51,540 bases of DNA from Escherichia phage brachmannus. Shown piece after piece: positions 3,485-49,459 of this stretch. The stretch is from sequence record ON711395.1; one strand, 5' to 3'. Position numbers and translations under genes: made by a program. Each line of letters opens with the position of its first letter. Position 1 is the stretch's first letter. Below the pieces are notes generated by a model that ran no database searches, was not told the origin of the DNA, and saw only the letters and a program-made list of their open reading frames with translations.

Positions 3485-4236
3485 TAGTGAAAGGCGTCGT
3501 TAAACAATGGCGCTTTCCTGAAGCAAGCGAGCGGCAATTGCGCCGCTCAATTCAGGAGGCGATAAGGGATCTTGTTGTGATGATGCGCAGCAAAACAAAG
3601 GAAATGAAATTTGACGCGGACACCGAAGAAATCAACGCCGCAGAAGATGAGATTAGTAGCTTCGCGTTAAAGCTAATAGCTGGCATCGCCGCATCACTTC
3701 CGGCTATCGGTCTTGCTGTTTATAAATTCAACGCAAAGCAATTTATTAACGTAGCGAAATCAACGGGAGGCAAGTCAAATTCAGCCGTTATCATCCTTAT
3801 GGCTATTGGGGCCAATGCGAATGAGAGTTGGTATAGGACGCTATACGGTCAATGGCATGACATGACGATCGCATCTCTTCAAAAACTATTTGGAAACATT
3901 GTGTCTGACTGGTCAACAAATATCAGATCGGCAAACTTTCGCGGAATGAGAGATAGTCAGGTTAATGAATTGGCTGGCAAGAGGTTCGCAGTTTATAGCT
4001 CTTGGGGTAAGACAAGGGCGGAAAACATTATAGGCGCTTGGAATAGTAGACTCATGCGCCAGCGTCTGTATGATGCAAAAGTAACTCATTATTTTTGGCA
4101 TGGCATGCTTGATGACAGAGAGCGATTGCAGCATGTACAATGGGAAGGTAAGCGCATTGCGCTAGATTCTGAACATGATTTTCCTGGTGAGCCTTTCGGT
4201 TGTCGTTGTTGGGCCATACCAGATTGGAACAGTTAA
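3481..4236 (+). CDS. head morphogenesis protein (Mu F / SPP1 gp7-like minor head protein)
   Basis: 251 aa, start overlaps portal stop, canonical position after portal. Confidence 0.5.
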   Translation: MIVKGVVKQWRFPEASERQLRRSIQEAIRDLVVMMRSKTKEMKFDADTEEINAAEDEISSFALKLIAGIAASLPAIGLAVYKFNAKQFINVAKSTGGKSNSAVIILMAIGANANESWYRTLYGQWHDMTIASLQKLFGNIVSDWSTNIRSANFRGMRDSQVNELAGKRFAVYSSWGKTRAENIIGAWNSRLMRQRLYDAKVTHYFWHGMLDDRERLQHVQWEGKRIALDSEHDFPGEPFGCRCWAIPDWNS

Positions 4237-4246
4237 GAGGTATTAA

Positions 4247-5362
4247 ATGAAAGCAAAACAAAGATTTGATAGCGCCAAAGTAAAGGCGCACTTTGATGAT
4301 AACGGGTTTTTAGTTGATCGCCCTATCGTGGCGCGAATTGGTTTACAAGTCTATCAGACTCCTTTCGGTGAGCGCAGAGAATTTCGTCCGGCGTCCGAAG
4401 TATTCAAGGCCGACTCACTAGCCACCTTCGCAGGGAAGCCAGTCACGGTTGGTCACGTTACGGTAACTCCAGAAAACGCCGAAAAGGTTGTGGTTGGTTC
4501 TTGTGCTGGCGCTGGTGTGCCGAACGGGATCGGCGTAGAGGTTCCGTTAAGCATTTACTCAAAACGAGCAATCGAAAGCGCGAAGAAGCGAGACACGGCG
4601 GAAATTTCAGTTGGTTATACATCGGTTGATATTGATAAACCAGGCTGGGGCAATAATAAAACTGGTGAGTACGTTTTCGATGAGGATGTTAGCGAAGACT
4701 GGAAACCGGATTCTCCTGATTGGGTTGAGTTTGATGCAATCCAGACTGAAATCAAGGTAAACCACATCGCGTTAGTTTTCCGAGGTCGGGCTGGTATTGC
4801 GAAATTAAACCTTGATAGTCAGCAAGATTTTCCGTATAGTGACGAAGTTATTAACAACAAAGAGGATCAAATCATGACTGTAAAAATTAAACTGGATGGC
4901 GCTGTAGAATTTGATGTTCCGAAAGCAGTTGCGGATCACATTGAATCACTGAAAGCTGATGCCAAAGCACAGAAAGAAAAGGCGGACGGCTTGGAAGCTG
5001 AGCGCGATGCGCTGCAATCCAAAGTAGATGGCATTCAGGATCAGATTGATGCCGCAGTCAAGAAGGCCAAAGAAGATGCCGAGCAATATGCTCAATTAGT
5101 GGCAGACGCTAAAGAGTTAGGCATCAAGTGCGACGGTCTGGATGCGAAAGCAATCAAGGTTGCATACATCAAAGAAGTTATGGGCAATGACGTTTCCGAT
5201 AAAACTGATGCCTATATCGAAACAGCTTTCGACATCGCCAAAAACTCTGATAAAATGGCGGCGCAGCGTAAGAGCATTAAGGGTGACTCTTTCGCGAATG
5301 AAAAACAGGATGAAGCAGGTTCTAAGCTGAATCCTAACGCTCGTTTTGAGAAACTGAAATAA
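4247..5362 (+). CDS. putative prohead protease / scaffolding protein
   Basis: 371 aa; globular N-terminal domain plus long K/E/A-rich coiled-coil C-terminus; located between head morphogenesis and capsid genes. Confidence 0.5.
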   Translation: MKAKQRFDSAKVKAHFDDNGFLVDRPIVARIGLQVYQTPFGERREFRPASEVFKADSLATFAGKPVTVGHVTVTPENAEKVVVGSCAGAGVPNGIGVEVPLSIYSKRAIESAKKRDTAEISVGYTSVDIDKPGWGNNKTGEYVFDEDVSEDWKPDSPDWVEFDAIQTEIKVNHIALVFRGRAGIAKLNLDSQQDFPYSDEVINNKEDQIMTVKIKLDGAVEFDVPKAVADHIESLKADAKAQKEKADGLEAERDALQSKVDGIQDQIDAAVKKAKEDAEQYAQLVADAKELGIKCDGLDAKAIKVAYIKEVMGNDVSDKTDAYIETAFDIAKNSDKMAAQRKSIKGDSFANEKQDEAGSKLNPNARFEKLK

Positions 5363-5374
5363 GGAGTAATTAAA

Positions 5375-5884
5375 ATGGCTAAAATTGGAGCAAGTTATTT
5401 TGACACTATGGCGCGTGCGCTTCCTGGTCAGGTATCCGACACGTCAGCATATAACATCGACGGCGCTTGCGTTCTTGACAAGGAAGACGGCATCCCAATC
5501 CTGGTTGGCGTGGCTGTTAAGCTAAAAGGCGTTGACTCAATGGGTAATAAGCTGATCGACGCTATTTCTGGTGGTGGTGATGTTCCTTATGGCGTTGGCG
5601 TTCGTTCGCACTTTCAAACTACGGCTGATAATGGTCGAATGGTTTATGAGGCTGGCGGCGGAATCAACGTTATGACTGAGGGCCGTGTCTGGATGATTGG
5701 CGATGATTCCGATAAAAGCAAAAAGCCAGAATATCGTGATCCTGTAAAAATTGATGAAAACTCTGGCAAGGTGAAAAGTGCTGGATCTATCAATACAAAT
5801 TGGGTTTACACTGGCGATAAAACCACTTTTGGAACTGGCAATAATATGTTGACTTTGTTTGAAGTTCAGGTCTTCCCAAGCTAA
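5375..5884 (+). CDS. capsid-associated structural protein (possible decoration protein)
   Basis: 169 aa, strong RBS, MAK N-terminus, paralogous to next gene (shared YNIDG and RGRVW motifs), followed by intrinsic terminator. Confidence 0.4.
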   Translation: MAKIGASYFDTMARALPGQVSDTSAYNIDGACVLDKEDGIPILVGVAVKLKGVDSMGNKLIDAISGGGDVPYGVGVRSHFQTTADNGRMVYEAGGGINVMTEGRVWMIGDDSDKSKKPEYRDPVKIDENSGKVKSAGSINTNWVYTGDKTTFGTGNNMLTLFEVQVFPS

Positions 5885-5888
5885 AATC

Positions 5889-5917
5889 AAGGCGCTCGCT
5901 TGAGCGCCTTTTTTATT
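5889..5917 (+). terminator. intrinsic terminator between capsid-associated paralogs
   Basis: GGCGCTC-GCTT-GAGCGCC stem then T6. Confidence 0.7.
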
Positions 5918-5934
5918 ATGTAAGGAGAAATGAA

Positions 5935-6723
5935 ATGGCTAAAGACTATTCATCTGTTATGGGCCTTTCTTGCCCTGGTTGTTTGGTTGATTCTACTCGC
6001 TACAATATTGATGGCACTGGTGTTTGCGGATCTGAGTCGATCATTGCTGGCAAGGTTGTTTTCTTCAAAGAGAGAGTAGAAGGTTATAACATATTTGTTG
6101 ATCAAAAAGAGGATGATGCAGTAGTTGCTGGTATTGCGCTAAGGAGCAACATAACAACAACAGTTAACGAGGAGGGCGGGTACTCTGACTACAAAGAAGG
6201 TGATCCTATTAGCGTTGTAACTCGTGGTCGCGTGTGGGTGTTAACTGAAAGTATTGATGAAGCTCCTTCACACGGTGAAAAAGTATATGTTAATAACGAT
6301 GGATTTGTTGGTAAGTCCGGCGACCAGGTTGTTGATGGGTGGATTTTTACAGGTGATTTTATGAAATTTGACAGTAGCATTAACATTGTAGGGATTCATA
6401 TCAAACCTGTAATAGTACATGTTCAAAAGTTAACAGCGGCTATTATTGAAGATGTTGATGGTAACAAGCCTGATGGAAACAGACCAAACAATGAGCCTGT
6501 TAATCTCAAGGTTACTGTAGAGCCTGAATATGCAACAGATAAAACTGGAACATGGGAGATTTCATTAGGAGGAGAATACGCATCAATTTCGCCAAGTGGT
6601 GACACGGCGCAAGTAACGCCATCAAGCAATGGTGATGTATATGTAAACTGGATGGCAAATGACGGATCTGGTGTATCTGACACATTTATCATCAACTTTG
6701 TAGATCCAGAGCCTGGCCCTTAA
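5935..6723 (+). CDS. capsid-associated structural protein with Ig-like C-terminal domain (paralog of previous)
   Basis: 262 aa; N-terminal similarity to 5375-5884 ORF; C-terminal beta-rich Ig-like region. Confidence 0.4.
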   Translation: MAKDYSSVMGLSCPGCLVDSTRYNIDGTGVCGSESIIAGKVVFFKERVEGYNIFVDQKEDDAVVAGIALRSNITTTVNEEGGYSDYKEGDPISVVTRGRVWVLTESIDEAPSHGEKVYVNNDGFVGKSGDQVVDGWIFTGDFMKFDSSINIVGIHIKPVIVHVQKLTAAIIEDVDGNKPDGNRPNNEPVNLKVTVEPEYATDKTGTWEISLGGEYASISPSGDTAQVTPSSNGDVYVNWMANDGSGVSDTFIINFVDPEPGP

Positions 6724-6735
6724 CATAAAAACATC

Positions 6736-6763
6736 TTGCACGTTTAACAAAAAGTGCTATCAT
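6736..6763 (+). promoter_or_regulatory. promoter-like TTGCAC-16-TGcTATCAT upstream of major capsid gene (overlaps inverted motif copy)
   Basis: -35-like hexamer, 16-bp spacer, extended -10-like TGnTATCAT. Confidence 0.4.
6742..6759 (-). promoter_or_regulatory. conserved motif copy in inverted orientation upstream of major capsid gene
   Basis: plus strand reads GTTTAACAAAAAGTGCTA. Confidence 0.5.
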
Positions 6764-6804
6764 CTAGGCCGTTACATTTAACGGCCTTTTATGGAGGAAA
6801 CAAA

Positions 6805-7776
6805 ATGGCTAAAAAATATGATGAACTAGATGCTACGATTGTAGCGAATCATTTGCAGATTCAGGGCGTTAAGAGCGACGCTTCTGATATGGGTATTTGG
6901 ACCGCTCAAGAGCTACACAAGATCCGCTCTACCGCATACGAGAAAGAGTATCCGGCAGGTTCCGCGCTTCGCGTATTCCCTGTAACAAACGAGCTTTCTG
7001 ATACTGACAAGACTTTCGAATATCAGACTTTTGATAAGGTTGGCTACGCGAAAATTATCGCCGACTACACCGATGATCTGCCGACTGTTGACGCGTTGAT
7101 GACTTCTGAGTTTGGCAAAGTGTTCCGCCTGGGTAACGCTTATCTGATCTCCATTGATGAGATTAAAGCAGGTCAGCGAACTGGCAAGAGCCTGTCAACT
7201 CGCAAGGCTAACGCTGCGCAAAATGCGCATGATCAGTTGATTAACTTCCTGGTGTTCAAAGGTTCTAAGCCTCATAAGATCGTTTCCGTTTTCGATCATC
7301 CTAACCTTACGAAAATTGCATCCAAAGGCTGGATGAGCAATGACGGCAATACCAAGTTCCCGCAGGTAGCAAGCGATGAACTGGAGGCCGCAATCGAAAC
7401 GATCGAGGAAGTAACAAAAGGCCAGCACCGCGCGACTAACATCCTGATCCCGCCGTCCATGCGCAAAGTCCTGACGGTTCGAATGGAAAATACCACTGAA
7501 AGTTATCTGGAATACTTCCAGAAGCAAAACGGCGGTATCACTATCGACTCTATCGCAGAGCTTGAGGATATTGACGGCAAAGGTACGAAAGGTTGCTTGG
7601 TTTACGAAAAAGATCCAATGAACATGAGCATTGAGATTCCAGAAGCGTTTAACATGCTTCCGGCGCAGCCAAAAGACCTACATTTCAAGGTTCCTTGCAC
7701 TTCCAAGTGTACTGGCCTTACGATTTATCGTCCGTTTACGATGGTGCTAATTACTGGCTTGAAAAAAGCTGAGTAA
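6805..7776 (+). CDS. major capsid protein
   Basis: 323 aa; ATG 6805 with GGAGG RBS (ORF-track start 6754 is upstream alternative); own promoter-like element and terminator hairpin downstream; position before head-tail genes. Confidence 0.75.
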   Translation: MAKKYDELDATIVANHLQIQGVKSDASDMGIWTAQELHKIRSTAYEKEYPAGSALRVFPVTNELSDTDKTFEYQTFDKVGYAKIIADYTDDLPTVDALMTSEFGKVFRLGNAYLISIDEIKAGQRTGKSLSTRKANAAQNAHDQLINFLVFKGSKPHKIVSVFDHPNLTKIASKGWMSNDGNTKFPQVASDELEAAIETIEEVTKGQHRATNILIPPSMRKVLTVRMENTTESYLEYFQKQNGGITIDSIAELEDIDGKGTKGCLVYEKDPMNMSIEIPEAFNMLPAQPKDLHFKVPCTSKCTGLTIYRPFTMVLITGLKKAE

Positions 7777-7788
7777 TTAGATAACATG

Positions 7789-7817
7789 GGGGAGCCTTAA
7801 GGGTTCCCCTTTTTTAT
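7789..7817 (+). terminator. intrinsic terminator after major capsid gene
   Basis: GC-rich stem then T6. Confidence 0.65.
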
Positions 7818-7833
7818 TTATGGAGTACGCAAA

Positions 7834-8100
7834 ATGAGCAAAAATTTAAAACTTAAAGTAACTGGCGTTTGCATGATCATTATGAACGGTAAGCGTTATC
7901 ATCCTGGTGATGAAATTGAAATTGAATCCGATCGCATTAATGATTCCGCAATTGAATACCTGATCGCTCGCGGTGATGTGGAAGTTAAAGACAATTCCGA
8001 AATTAACGAGCAAATCAAGGCGAAAGCGGAGAAGAAGCGCAAAAAAGATCCTACCGAGGGTAAGAGCCGCAAAGAACTAGAGGATGGCGGCGAATATTAA
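7834..8100 (+). CDS. hypothetical protein (K/E-rich C-terminus)
   Basis: 88-aa ORF with RBS. Confidence 0.4.
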
Positions 8101-8146
8101 TAATTGGGGCGCTTATGCGCCCCTTGTCACATCTGGAGAAAACAAA

Positions 8147-8566
8147 ATGGTAGATGAATTTTACACAGACGCTGAAATCGTTCAGCAAATCGTAAAGTTA
8201 GCGCCGCCAATGCAACAAGTTGATCCCGATTTAATTGTGGCATGGATTGAGCTTGCTAAAGAGTTTGTTTGCAAAAAGCGGTTTAAAAACTCATACCCGA
8301 AAGCGGTTGCGCTTTACACTCTTCATCTTATGACCTTAGACGGGGCAATGAAACAGGAAGGTGAAAGCGTAGAAAGCTATTCCCGCCGCGTCGCCTCGTT
8401 CACTCTGACTGGTGAGTTTAGTCAGACGTTTGATCGAATCTCTTCCGATACAAGCGGAAAGCAGATCCGACAAACGCCGTGGGGCAAAATGTACGAAGTG
8501 TTAAACCGTAAGCACGGTGGCGGTTTTGGCCTTGTAACTGGATTACGCCGGAGATGTTGCCTATGA
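8147..8566 (+). CDS. putative head-tail connector protein
   Basis: ATG 8147 with GGAG RBS (track start 8084 alternative); position between capsid and tail genes. Confidence 0.4.
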
Positions 8567-10493: not shown

Positions 10494-10510
10494 TTTAACA
10501 AAAAGTGCTA
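10494..10510 (-). promoter_or_regulatory. conserved motif copy in inverted orientation abutting RBS of tail chaperone gene
   Basis: plus strand reads TTTTAACAAAAAGTGCTATAAGGAG. Confidence 0.5.
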
Positions 10511-10525
10511 TAAGGAGATCTTGAG

Positions 10526-29076: not shown

Positions 29077-29088
29077 CTAGTCACCTCA

Positions 29089-29107
29089 TAGCATTTTTTG
29101 TTAAAAC
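29089..29107 (+). promoter_or_regulatory. conserved motif copy TAGCATTTTTTGTTAAAAC upstream of helicase
   Basis: TATTAT 22 bp downstream of TTGTTA. Confidence 0.55.
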
Positions 29108-31161: not shown

Positions 31162-31580
31162 TGGCTATAACTGATAAAGGAGATTATCTTGAGTTTTACG
31201 AAAGAGATCCAACCGACACGAGAAAGGAAGTTAATCACCAGATAGATAGCTTTCAGTGGTTGACTTATGCTCATCCTTATTTGCTAGCGTGGCATACGGT
31301 AAACGAGAATGAGAAGTCGAAAGTAACGGCGATGATTGATCAGCAGTCCGGCTTGGTTAAGGGGGTAAGCGATTTCATCATCCTGATTGGTTCAAACGGA
31401 AAATACCCCTTTGCAGCGATTGAGATCAAACGAGTGAATAAATCAGGCAAGGGGAAAGCATCACCAGTCAGCGATGAACAAAAGGCTTTTTTGCGTCGCG
31501 TTCGCAGCTTAGGAGGATTCGCTGCGGTCGCCTACGGATTTAATCAGTTTAAGTTAGCTATTGAATACATGCTTAAATAG
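31161..31580 (+). CDS. VRR-NUC-like PD-(D/E)XK nuclease
   Basis: motif GVSDFIIL...AIEIK; start overlaps helicase stop. Confidence 0.5.
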   Translation: MAITDKGDYLEFYERDPTDTRKEVNHQIDSFQWLTYAHPYLLAWHTVNENEKSKVTAMIDQQSGLVKGVSDFIILIGSNGKYPFAAIEIKRVNKSGKGKASPVSDEQKAFLRRVRSLGGFAAVAYGFNQFKLAIEYMLK

Positions 31581-31596
31581 CACTTTTTGTTAAAAC
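31578..31596 (+). promoter_or_regulatory. conserved motif TAGCACTTTTTGTTAAAAC + hairpin + ATAAT
   Basis: overlaps stop TAG of VRR-NUC gene; hairpin TGGCGC...GCGCCA. Confidence 0.6.
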
Positions 31597-32390: not shown

Positions 32391-32648
32391 ATGAAAAAAG
32401 AGAGAAGCGTTTATTTAAATGAAACTGGCGAGTGGTTGTTATTTCGCGCTATGGTGTGCGATGCACTTGATAAAAACCCTAACGTGAAAAAGATGATTGA
32501 TTGCGATCCGTGGGAATTTTCAAGCGCATTAGATATGAGCTTTGATGAGACAAGAAAACTCCCTCTTGAAAAATGGCACGAACAAATCAGAAATGATATG
32601 CAAGAGTTTGTAGATTCGTGGAATTTTCAGAACGGAATGATCCACTAA
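32391..32648 (+). CDS. hypothetical protein
   Basis: 85-aa ORF, ends at TAATAG preceding motif copy. Confidence 0.5.
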   Translation: MKKERSVYLNETGEWLLFRAMVCDALDKNPNVKKMIDCDPWEFSSALDMSFDETRKLPLEKWHEQIRNDMQEFVDSWNFQNGMIH

Positions 32649-32667
32649 TAGCACTTTTTGTTAAAAC
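32649..32667 (+). promoter_or_regulatory. conserved motif + hairpin + CATAAT
   Basis: after TAATAG; downstream leader TCATCGAAACGA...GAGGAAA shared with the 43503 copy. Confidence 0.6.
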
Positions 32668-38932: not shown

Positions 38933-38950
38933 TTTTAACAAAAAGTGCTA
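38933..38950 (-). promoter_or_regulatory. conserved motif + hairpin GCCAGGTG...CCTGGC + CATAAT, minus strand
   Basis: overlaps stop of methyltransferase-like gene; upstream of 38878 start. Confidence 0.6.
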
Positions 38951-39658
38951 TTTTGAGTTTGACTCAAAGACGGCGCGAGCAAAGCCGCGCGGAGTGAGGG
39001 AGCGGATCATCTTTGTGCGCGATGACTTGCCGCCAGTTTTGGCCCAGCCTGGATTATCTTTGTCTTCCTCTTTCGGCAGGATTAAAGCGCGCGGAGGAAT
39101 AACAAAGCCGTTGCCAGTCCAGAGGCACGTTCTCTTAAAGTAGCGATCCCGCGCCGGAATAATATCAGGGAAGTCGGGATGTTTATCATCTTCCGGCAGA
39201 TAGCCAGCGTAATCGCACGGATGGAACGTATAATCAGGCTTACGCCATAACGTTGACAACTTGCCAACCGGATTTTCGATCATGTAAGGAACACCGAAAT
39301 AATCAGCTATATCAGCCGCGATTCTGCAAGTGTCTGCGGCCTCATCCTGGAACGATGGATTCTCAAGGCGTTTTTTGGCCCAATGGCGAGATCCGCTATT
39401 TGCAAGGTCGGTGCAAGGAGGGAACGCCATAATAAAATCAGGATTGCCCCACTCATTATTGATTGCCTTAACATAAAAAGCATCATCAATCCAGACGTTA
39501 ACGTATTCGATATTCTCATGCTGTATGCGCACTGACTGGTAATCACCGTGATCGCCGCCGTCAGCATTAAAGCAAATGCACTTATATCCATTATCAGCCC
39601 AATCTTTAACGGCTTTACCAGATCCATCAAATAGGGAGAATATTAAACCTTTATACAT
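38948..39658 (-). CDS. C5-cytosine DNA methyltransferase-like protein (short, no obvious target-recognition domain)
   Basis: motifs LFDGSG (I), FPPC (IV), ENPVG (VI), GNGFV (X-like), SLTPRGFARAV C-terminal; ATG 39656-39658 with GAGGT RBS. Confidence 0.5.
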   Translation of the reverse strand: MYKGLIFSLFDGSGKAVKDWADNGYKCICFNADGGDHGDYQSVRIQHENIEYVNVWIDDAFYVKAINNEWGNPDFIMAFPPCTDLANSGSRHWAKKRLENPSFQDEAADTCRIAADIADYFGVPYMIENPVGKLSTLWRKPDYTFHPCDYAGYLPEDDKHPDFPDIIPARDRYFKRTCLWTGNGFVIPPRALILPKEEDKDNPGWAKTGGKSSRTKMIRSLTPRGFARAVFESNSK

Positions 39659-40848: not shown

Positions 40849-40868
40849 GTTTTTAACAAAAAGTGCTA
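40849..40868 (-). promoter_or_regulatory. conserved motif + 8-bp hairpin + TATAGT, minus strand
   Basis: minus strand TAGCACTTTTTGTTAAAAAC then CGATGCGC...GCGCATCG. Confidence 0.6.
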
Positions 40869-40869
40869 T

Positions 40870-42154: not shown

Positions 42155-42173
42155 TTTTTAACAAAAAGTGCTA
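42155..42173 (-). promoter_or_regulatory. conserved motif + hairpin, minus strand, upstream of first minus-strand early gene
   Basis: minus strand TAGCACTTTTTGTTAAAAATCAGGCCGCCTGAT. Confidence 0.55.
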
Positions 42174-42713
42174 TTTGACGGTTAGCACCAGGATTGTGAT
42201 CGAAATAATCAAAAGTAATCATTCGTAATCAAATCACGTCAAAATGATGATTGCCTTTGCAAATTTGATGAGAAAAGTAATCACGTTTAATCATTGGTTG
42301 CAGGGGAGATAGTGAAACCTTCCCCTCTTGCCTCACTTTTCCGCCCGGCTGTCAGTGGTTGTTATGTTCCGTTCCCGCCTGTTCTTTTGTTGACCTTCCG
42401 CAAAATACGATAACAAAAAATAACAAACAGTACCTATATAATACATTGAAAAATAAGTATTATTTATTTATATGTATCTATATATTCTCTTTTGTTATCT
42501 TGGTTATTGTGGTATTTGGTGGGGTATATAGTTTTTGTGTATCTGTATGTGTGTATGGGTATGTAGGGGGCATATATATCTATATGGCACTTTCCGCGAG
42601 AAAACTTCGATAACAGGCAATGATAACATTGATTTATAAGGAAAAATAACGCCCATATTGTTATTGTGCCACCATATAAAATTGATAAAACACGCGGGAA
42701 CAAGAAAAAACAG

Positions 42714-43236: not shown

Positions 43237-43505
43237 AAAAGGCATTAATCAGCGTTTTGGCGGCAATGGCATTCCTGACCGGATGCAAAGAAGATGGCGC
43301 GCATGTTGGCAATGTGCAGATGGCTAACCCTGGCGATGACTACAGCGTAAGGGAGCTATTCACCGCTGACGGTTGCACCGTTTACCGATTCTATGACGAT
43401 CGCACTGTTTACTTCACCAACTGTAAGGGCACGACTATCTGGGAAGTGTCGAAAAGCAATGGCAAAGGCACGAAGACAGAACATATGACCGTCGAGACAA
43501 AATAG
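43233..43505 (+). CDS. small lipoprotein
   Basis: signal peptide with lipobox LTGC. Confidence 0.5.
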   Translation: MKKALISVLAAMAFLTGCKEDGAHVGNVQMANPGDDYSVRELFTADGCTVYRFYDDRTVYFTNCKGTTIWEVSKSNGKGTKTEHMTVETK

Positions 43506-43521
43506 CACTTTTTGTTAAAAC
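43503..43521 (+). promoter_or_regulatory. conserved motif + hairpin GCCAGGC-GCAAA-GCCTGGC + ATAAT
   Basis: overlaps stop TAG of lipoprotein gene. Confidence 0.6.
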
Positions 43522-43964: not shown

Positions 43965-43965
43965 A

Positions 43966-43984
43966 TAGCACTTTTTGTTAAAAC
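43966..43984 (+). promoter_or_regulatory. conserved motif + CATAAT
   Basis: follows stop TAA; CATAAT 22 bp after TTGTTA. Confidence 0.55.
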
Positions 43985-45180: not shown

Positions 45181-45199
45181 AATAGCACTTTTTGTTAAA
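45181..45199 (+). promoter_or_regulatory. conserved motif + hairpin with TATAAT in loop
   Basis: GGCCAGGTATAATGGCC. Confidence 0.6.
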
Positions 45200-49149: not shown

Positions 49150-49440
49150 ATGGCAAACAAAACTTACCGCAAACTACTGGTTAACGCTTTTGAAAACATC
49201 GCGCAGTGTAACAAGTGGAACGACTCTAAACACTCGCCAATCACAATGAAGCGCGCCGGATTCAAAAATACTCGTTCATGGGCGCGAGCTTTCGCAGCTT
49301 GCTATATGCCGGATGGCGGACTAGGGGTGATGAACGATTTTTTGATCAACATGATAGAGGAAGCTGCGCGAGAGGATCGACCGCTGACACAGCGAGATTT
49401 TGACGACTTCGCGCGCGATGAGCTTTACTATCTGAGCTAA
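49150..49440 (+). CDS. hypothetical protein
   Basis: 96 aa; stop followed by TAG of motif copy. Confidence 0.45.
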   Translation: MANKTYRKLLVNAFENIAQCNKWNDSKHSPITMKRAGFKNTRSWARAFAACYMPDGGLGVMNDFLINMIEEAAREDRPLTQRDFDDFARDELYYLS

Positions 49441-49459
49441 TAGCACTTTTTGTTAAAAC
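49441..49459 (+). promoter_or_regulatory. conserved motif + hairpin AAGGGCA...TGCCCTT
   Basis: after TAATAG. Confidence 0.55.

Follow-up and report, generated by a model that had tools for sequence, protein, structure and literature searches.

Two consecutive genes in the head module of Escherichia phage brachmannus, which we call A and B, very probably encode the two cement proteins of a T1-like head, orthologous to gp49 and gp48 of phage T1, with the supply of B plausibly limited by a terminator-like hairpin that lies between them. The window analyzed is the whole 51,540-nucleotide stretch of sequence record ON711395.1, and the features discussed are collected in Table 1. The window is a T1-like siphophage genome of the Drexlerviridae; its 4200-7800 segment is 98.8% identical to that of Escherichia phage JLBYU26 and 96-98% identical to those of orkinos, tunzivis, SECphi27, and other Drexlerviridae of the Tempevirinae/Warwickvirus group. 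Based on homology, synteny, and predicted fold, A would do the job of gp49 and B that of gp48. The system is already known: published structures of T1 and FCWL1, Pfam families, and the annotation of T1 account for it, and descriptions of T1 cover its architecture, fold, stoichiometry, and terminator.

Judged by sequence, A and B are paralogues, as a preliminary description of this region had proposed. Both open reading frames are present, and BLASTP aligns their products over 161 amino acids (aa) with 30% identity (E = 3e-15), a similarity well beyond chance. Two shared N-terminal motifs had been named. YNIDG occurs in both proteins, at residues 26-30 of A and 23-27 of B, but RGRVW occurs only in B, the context in A being EGRVW, and the common motif is GRVW. 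In A-type homologues Y, N, I, D, and G, followed by G, R, and W, are invariant; in B-type homologues the invariant residues are Y23, G98, V100, and W101. Both proteins lie far above the Pfam cutoff of 27 bits for PF22758 (Phage_cement; 85.6 bits and 4.6e-24 for A, 82.1 bits and 5.8e-23 for B) and for PF23982 (XM1_gp53; 53.1 bits for A, 78.0 bits and 8.8e-22 for B). Among PDB sequences, A best matches a 158-aa protein of T1 (gp49) and FCWL1 named "cement protein II / decoration protein" (9kzj/9kmg, E = 1.8e-36), compared to a much weaker match to T1 gp48 (E = 4e-13). The best match of B is T1 gp48 itself, a 255-aa "BIG2 domain-containing protein" (9kzj_H, E = 4e-22), compared to a much weaker match to gp49 (E = 8e-16). 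In these comparisons the correspondence is one to one, A to gp49 and B to gp48. When A and B were placed with single-cement proteins in a neighbor-joining tree, the A sequences grouped tightly together and those of B were long-branched and not cleanly monophyletic; the tree does not decide whether B originated in a single duplication.

Predicted structures point in the same direction. AlphaFold2 (AF2) models were built as single chains on homologue alignments, from which one database sequence (P0010; 358 aa, from a 1.2-kb contig) was dropped as a probable chimera with an unrelated C-terminus. The predicted local distance difference test (pLDDT) score was 81.3 for A and 88.8 for B. In Foldseek searches, the model of A matched the T1 gp49 and FCWL1 chains with template modeling (TM) scores of 0.75-0.81, and the N-domain of B matched T1 gp48 and FCWL1 gp29 with a root mean square deviation of 3.1 Å and TMt values of 0.76-0.77. 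The next matches of both proteins were the cement proteins of Pam3 (8hdt_G) and XM1 (7kmx_a), each with a Foldseek probability of 1.00, and of Borrelia BB1. A consists of a conserved N-terminal arm and a beta-tulip-type body, and 20 of the 46 columns invariant across 35 homologues fall within residues 1-33; this near-invariance of the first 33 residues is consistent with a functional arm. The preliminary description had called A and B candidate decoration or cement proteins and had named structure prediction and presence in virions as checks. Both proteins exceed the Phage_cement threshold, both models superpose on the T1 gp49/gp48 and FCWL1 chains, which are solved capsid cement chains, and the T1 orthologues gp49 and gp48 are both modelled in the virion capsid (PMC11945409). 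Both genes also adjoin the HK97-fold capsid gene in the head module, as expected for trimeric cement proteins.

The T1 capsid indicates what this pair would do. In 2025, cryo-electron microscopy of T1 resolved 80 gp49 homotrimers and 60 gp48(1):gp49(2) heterotrimers, which occupy icosahedral and quasi-threefold axes in a shell with T = 7, corresponding to 360 copies of gp49 and 60 of gp48 with 415 of gp47, the major capsid protein (MCP; PMC11945409). Both cement proteins have a beta-tulip fold, and only the N-domain of gp48 was built. The N-terminus of gp49 is embedded in the inner capsid surface, where it touches the A-domains of two capsid subunits, unlike earlier decoration proteins, which according to the T1 authors are anchored only outside. 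gp48 stays outside the capsid, with its C-terminal domain visible as a weak flexible protrusion, and the legend of a figure describes each hexon as ringed by six trimers, four of them homotrimers and two heterotrimers (PMC11945409). Given 60 heterotrimer sites and two heterotrimers among the six trimers of each hexon, we infer that the heterotrimers occupy the penton-adjacent quasi-threefold sites and that B would be a vertex-proximal specialist subunit. The five chains of the long paralogue in the FCWL1 portal-vertex PDB entry fit this placement.

The window shares gene order and Pfam families with the T1 gp49/gp48 pair (PDB 9KZJ; PMC11945409) and the FCWL1 pair (9KMG/9KMH), and the long paralogue in both has a C-terminal Big_2 domain, as B does. 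Synteny with T1 is exact: gene 50 (protease), gene 49, a terminator, gene 48, gene 47 (MCP), and another terminator. However, T1 belongs to the Tunavirinae, whereas the window is Tempevirinae/Warwickvirus-like, and identity to T1 is 52% for A, which is 11 aa longer than gp49, about 41% for the N-domain of B, and about 38% for its C-domain. The genes for members of PF22758 (Pseudomonas phage E217 gp24 and cyanophage Pam3 gp6) and PF23982 (Vibrio phage XM1 gp53) lie just 5' of the capsid gene, as here, although XM1 has a single homotrimer-forming cement protein whereas two paralogues with mixed trimers are expected in this phage. The trimeric decoration proteins lambda gpD and TW1 gp56 have an equal role and equal capsid sites, and the T1 authors describe the fold as analogous to theirs (PMC11945409), but sequence similarity is undetectable and the structural match to TW1 is weak (5wk1, E = 0.28). 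Shigella phage Sf11 was considered as a closer structural relative and set aside as a different system, with a single homotrimeric decoration protein. An equivalent cement pair is reportedly described in the FCWL1 capsid study of Cai et al. (2025, Structure).

The order of the head module is TerS, TerL, portal (PF06381), a Mu-F-like gene, prohead protease, A, B, MCP, and a DUF7444 protein. The preliminary description had placed A and B between scaffold and major capsid genes. The capsid gene is indeed downstream, with its true start at ATG 6805, but the upstream "scaffold" is the prohead protease (DUF2213/phrog_530), in the position of T1 gene 50 and 12 nucleotides (nt) from gene A. A and B are each preceded by the Shine-Dalgarno sequence AAGGAG (5361-5366 and 5922-5927, respectively), and the capsid gene by GGAGG.

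As a sequence feature, the terminator that had been noticed between A and B is a canonical hairpin with a T-run, at 5889-5914. It begins 4 nt past the stop codon of A; its arms, AAGGCGCTC (5889-5897) and GAGCGCCTT (5902-5910), enclose the loop GCTT and are followed by TTTTATTAT. Six of the stem pairs are G-C, and six T residues follow in a row at 5909-5914, the first two of which close the stem. The minimum free energy (MFE) is -16.2 kcal/mol (z = -3.5 compared to shuffled sequences). At the equivalent spot, between genes 49 and 48, the GenBank record of T1 annotates a rho-independent terminator. Sixty two-paralogue loci from GenBank phages and IMG/VR yielded 40 distinct spacers between A and B, and a hairpin with a T-run was present in all 40 (7-11 bp, G+C-rich, -11.6 to -18.9 kcal/mol). 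These spacers contain 20 different left arms, for example GGCGCTC, GGCCGGA, GGGGACTATCC, GACCGC, GGCTCC, and GCCACTC, all of which are still paired through compensatory changes in the stem, which is strong evidence for selection on the hairpin structure. An Rfam scan of 5000-8300 found no known RNA family, with two sub-threshold small RNA matches over the terminator (E ~0.8-0.9). The terminator at the end of the TerL gene (2149-2182) has flanks in common with that at 5889-5921 (ATC AAGGC...GCCTT TTTTATTATG) and a different upper stem and loop; the terminators after TerL and A look built on one template.

It is plausible that this terminator tunes the stoichiometry of A and B, as the preliminary description had suggested, toward a target that in T1 would be 360:60. 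In such a scheme, A would be the last gene of a portal-to-protease late transcript that ends at the strong hairpin and T-run, and B, situated between the terminator and the promoter candidate of the capsid gene, would depend for its transcription on read-through or on a weak promoter with its start inside the hairpin. Relatives with a single cement gene (Webervirus, Braunvirinae, and Vilniusvirus) have the order cement gene, terminator, promoter, MCP, which suggests that the slot filled by B lies between two elements that were there before it, a terminator and the capsid promoter. Since the capsid gene has its own conserved promoter candidate, this slot would be a low-expression pocket. Given that A and B share the AAGGAG ribosome-binding site, a 6:1 ratio would need about 83% termination if translation and mRNA stability are equal, a predicted figure that is arithmetic only. 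In six of the single-cement relatives (L078, L079, L080, L082, L084, and L088), the cement and capsid genes are set apart by an additional 0.8-1.6 kb of DNA.

Several points weigh against this account of dosage and of the capsid. The terminator is not specific to the A-B pair, as it follows the cement gene in phages that lack B, and similar terminators follow many late genes. A promoter-like element overlaps the terminator, so that expression of B may not require read-through. The 60 available sites, and not supply, may cap how much B is incorporated. The penton-adjacent location is our own deduction and is absent from the T1 text consulted. Finally, the virion evidence belongs to the T1 orthologues, at 52% identity for A and about 41% for the N-domain of B.

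The first three of these points are the core of an alternative that we regard as possible, though we do not favor it, in which the hairpin belongs to the general "transcripton" layout of T1-type late genes as one of its boundaries. It would terminate the upstream mRNA and stabilize the 3' end of that mRNA, and would not be a device evolved for the A:B ratio; B would be made mainly from its own weak promoter at 5859-5887, and the 6:1 ratio of the virion would be fixed by the 60 B-accepting sites. The -10 element of this promoter candidate overlaps the stop codon of A and ends 1 nt 5' of the hairpin. Its predicted start is about 7 nt downstream, at approximately 5893-5895, within the 5' arm of the terminator, and an RNA that starts inside this arm cannot form the hairpin and would escape termination. 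Of 44 distinct relatives, 23 have the pattern TTGnnn-17-TAnnnT abutting the A-B hairpin, as do 11 of 16 stem families, compared to 0.33 on average and at most 3 in shuffles, and the 17-nt spacing is kept even in lineages in which the stop codon is shifted by 10 nt. An equal layout precedes the terminator after the MCP gene. Terminators also follow the cement gene in relatives without B, and a hairpin with a T-run follows TerL, MCP, the major tail protein, and other genes. The description of the T1 late region as transcriptons, with RpoD promoters flanked by terminators (PMC11447400), likewise counts for a generic boundary. However, another reading of the AT-rich hexamer is as an A-tract that lengthens the stem by pairing with the T-tail, the TTG falls within conserved C-terminal Leu codons, so that its conservation may be partly coding, and five stem families lack this element. 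A further -10 sequence, TATAAT at 2143-2148, lies directly before a hairpin at 2149-2170 and is the third sited 0-1 nt from a terminator hairpin; a TTG lies 17 nt upstream of the -10 at two of the three sites (5859-5887, 7759-7787, and 2143-2148). These hexamers may reflect a design in which promoter and terminator overlap, or merely pairing of an A-tract with the T-tail. Our search of the literature on transcription in T1-like phages found no transcriptome or start-site map.

A broader proposal, which we offer with considerable reservation, is that overlapping promoter-terminator units set late-gene dosage in T1-like phages and that B is a freely exchangeable surface cassette. A sigma-70 promoter would abut each hairpin and start within its 5' arm, such that incoming transcripts stop and locally started ones, unable to form the hairpin, read on.

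The promoter candidate of the capsid gene, which bears on the supposed low expression of B, has a -35 element with only 3 of 6 consensus positions and was not listed by the consensus scan, but its spacing and its TTG and TAnnnT cores are conserved in relatives. The motif TTG(A/C)(A/C)(C/G)-16 nt-TGc-TAT(C/T/A)AT is present in 52 of 61 distinct spacers between cement and MCP genes. A stem-loop lies between this candidate and the capsid Shine-Dalgarno sequence; the hairpin is kept in relatives, the T-run not always. The spacer and extended -10 are supplied by one copy of a family-wide 18-mer, TTTAACAAAAAGTGCTAT, with 12 occurrences in the window, compared to zero expected, and 10 in T1. In reverse complement it matches a 21-nt repeat, aaATAGCACnnnTTGnTAAAA, reported for TLS, T1, Rtp, and Rogue1 in the TLS paper. 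Copies other than that at the capsid gene are often directly 3' of a hairpin, and a divergent copy in the opposite orientation, ATAGCACTAATTGCTAAAA, lies at approximately 2120-2138, 5' of the portal gene.

B differs from A in its C-terminal domain, which the preliminary description had correctly recognized as Ig-like. Residues 189-248 match Pfam Big_2 (E = 1.3e-5; 25.5 bits, compared to a gathering threshold of 22.8), and the domain is confidently predicted as a beta-sandwich with strands spanning residues 168-256 (pLDDT >90). Its structural matches are the Ig-like domain of lambda gpV (2l04, TMt 0.72), T5 pb6, and the DT57C tail tube. Among relatives, B has zero, one, or two Big_2 domains: none in TLS-like and other relatives, where the protein is 143-168 aa long, one in T1 and this phage, and two in the 337-aa B of Kalemo. 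The retention of B without an Ig domain in relatives suggests that its conserved function is that of the cement domain.

B is also far more variable than A, and behaves as a hypervariable, swappable cassette. In comparison with FritzSarasin, aa identity to the window is 99% for A and 100% for MCP, compared to 80% for the N-domain of B and 47% for its C-domain, and nucleotide identity along B (L001 5910-6692 versus window 5935-6723) falls from 100% to about 50%. Such a decay points to recombination, or to diversifying selection acting on the Ig domain, which is exposed. Kalemo (L007 3099-4550 versus window 5473-6720) matches the window at about 97% identity on either side of a different cassette, which comprises the body of A and all of B, runs from roughly codon 33 of A through the stop codon of B, and is only about 72% identical to T1. 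By BLASTN, the right junction falls near the stop codon of B (window 6721) and the left junction about 98 nt into A (window 5472). Kalemo retains the window-type first 33 codons of A, whose T1 counterpart is the arm that contacts the capsid protein. B cassettes may have been swapped between phages with a 97% identical backbone and a 99-100% identical capsid protein. The 18-mer was considered as the crossover point in Kalemo and rejected, as the right junction is at about 6721 instead.

The Ig domain is an optional, exchangeable, fast-evolving surface module that probably mediates weak adhesion. Exposed and dispensable Ig-like capsid domains for which weak adhesion is proposed are likewise found in T4 Hoc and T5 pb10, although these are monomers at hexamer centers, whereas B carries its Ig domain as an extension of a subunit in the threefold cement trimer. 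One could go further and regard B as chiefly a Hoc-like adhesin that displays its Ig-like domain to bind host or environmental glycans, with the cement domain as a mere anchor. The confident Big_2 prediction, its resemblance to Ig-like domains of phage tail tubes, and the fact that the Ig segment diverges fastest between near-identical phages are consistent with this possibility, and the T1 authors suggest that the C-terminal domain of gp48 aids adsorption (PMC11945409). We nevertheless consider it unlikely as the chief role, given the many relatives in which B lacks any Ig domain.

Near-identical GenBank records name these products "HtjA", "putative zonula occludens toxin", "SbcC-like scaffolding protein", "capsid fiber protein", or "hypothetical"; several label the protease "major capsid protein", and "capsid decoration protein" is used for A only in some BASEL and CPT records. 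That such names are true, and that the products are a scaffolding protein, an SbcC-like protein, a zonula occludens toxin, or HtjA, is hardly credible despite their presence in near-identical records, as they have no Pfam or PHROG support and both sequence and fold match cement proteins on solved capsids. Antisense or overlapping open reading frames at 5540-5890(-), 6426-6695(-), 6192-6386(-), and 5930-6076(+) have no PHROG match, lie inside well-supported genes, and were rejected as genes. Just 3' of the capsid gene is a small conserved gene (7834-8100; 88 aa, DUF7444/phrog_2716, equivalent to T1 gp46) with a terminator-like hairpin on each side. About 20 records labelled as Campylobacter jejuni phages contain a T1-like head module, and in one of these, phage A120 (MG065671.1), A is 57% identical. 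A Campylobacter host is unexpected for such a module, and these records may represent contaminating coliphages or mislabelled hosts.

Table 1. Features of the head module and associated elements in the 51,540-nt window
Feature	Coordinates	Strand	Description
Prohead protease gene, T1 gp50 orthologue	4247..5362	+	DUF2213, 7.6e-25; phrog_530 "head maturation protease", 1.7e-109
Gene A, major cement (decoration) protein, T1 gp49 orthologue	5375..5884	+	169 aa; PF22758
Sigma-70-like promoter candidate	5859..5887	+	TTGAAG-17 nt-TAAAAT; consensus scan 9/12
Intrinsic-terminator-like element, A-B junction	5889..5919	+	9-bp stem, GCTT loop, T-rich tail
Gene B, T1 gp48 orthologue	5935..6723	+	262 aa; cement N-domain and Ig-like C-domain
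Gene B, N-terminal cement domain (~aa 1-160)	5935..6414	+	PF22758, PF23982, 9kzj_H; orthologue of the modelled part of gp48
Gene B, linker, Ig-like (Big_2) domain, and stop codon	6427..6723	+	Big_2 at residues 189-248; hypervariable part
Sigma-70-like promoter candidate, capsid gene	6736..6763	+	TTGCAC, 16-nt spacer, TGc-TATCAT (extended -10)
Stem-loop	6767..6790	+	GGCCGTTA-CATT-TAACGGCC, then TTTT; MFE -14.8 kcal/mol, z = -4.0
Major capsid protein gene, T1 gp47 orthologue	6805..7776	+	PF09950, 1.3e-53; phrog_264, 9e-100
Promoter-like element abutting post-capsid terminator hairpin	7759..7810	+	TTGAAA-17-TAACAT (7759-7787); layout as at the A-B junction
TTTAACAAAAAGTGCTAT copies, plus strand	6743-6760, 10494-10511, 38934-38951, 40852-40869, 42157-42174	+	
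TTTAACAAAAAGTGCTAT copies, minus strand	29088-29105, 31577-31594, 32648-32665, 43502-43519, 43965-43982, 45182-45199, 49440-49457	-	

We propose the name cement protein (gp49-like) for A and, for B, vertex-associated cement protein with Ig-like domain (gp48-like). For phage engineering, the side observations could be of modest use: the Ig domain of B is a natural, tolerated display site present in about 60 copies, and the promoter-terminator layout may guide the design of gene dosage. If promoters and terminators do overlap at late-gene boundaries in T1-like phages, the dosage of A, that of B, and that of the capsid gene would be independent of one another.

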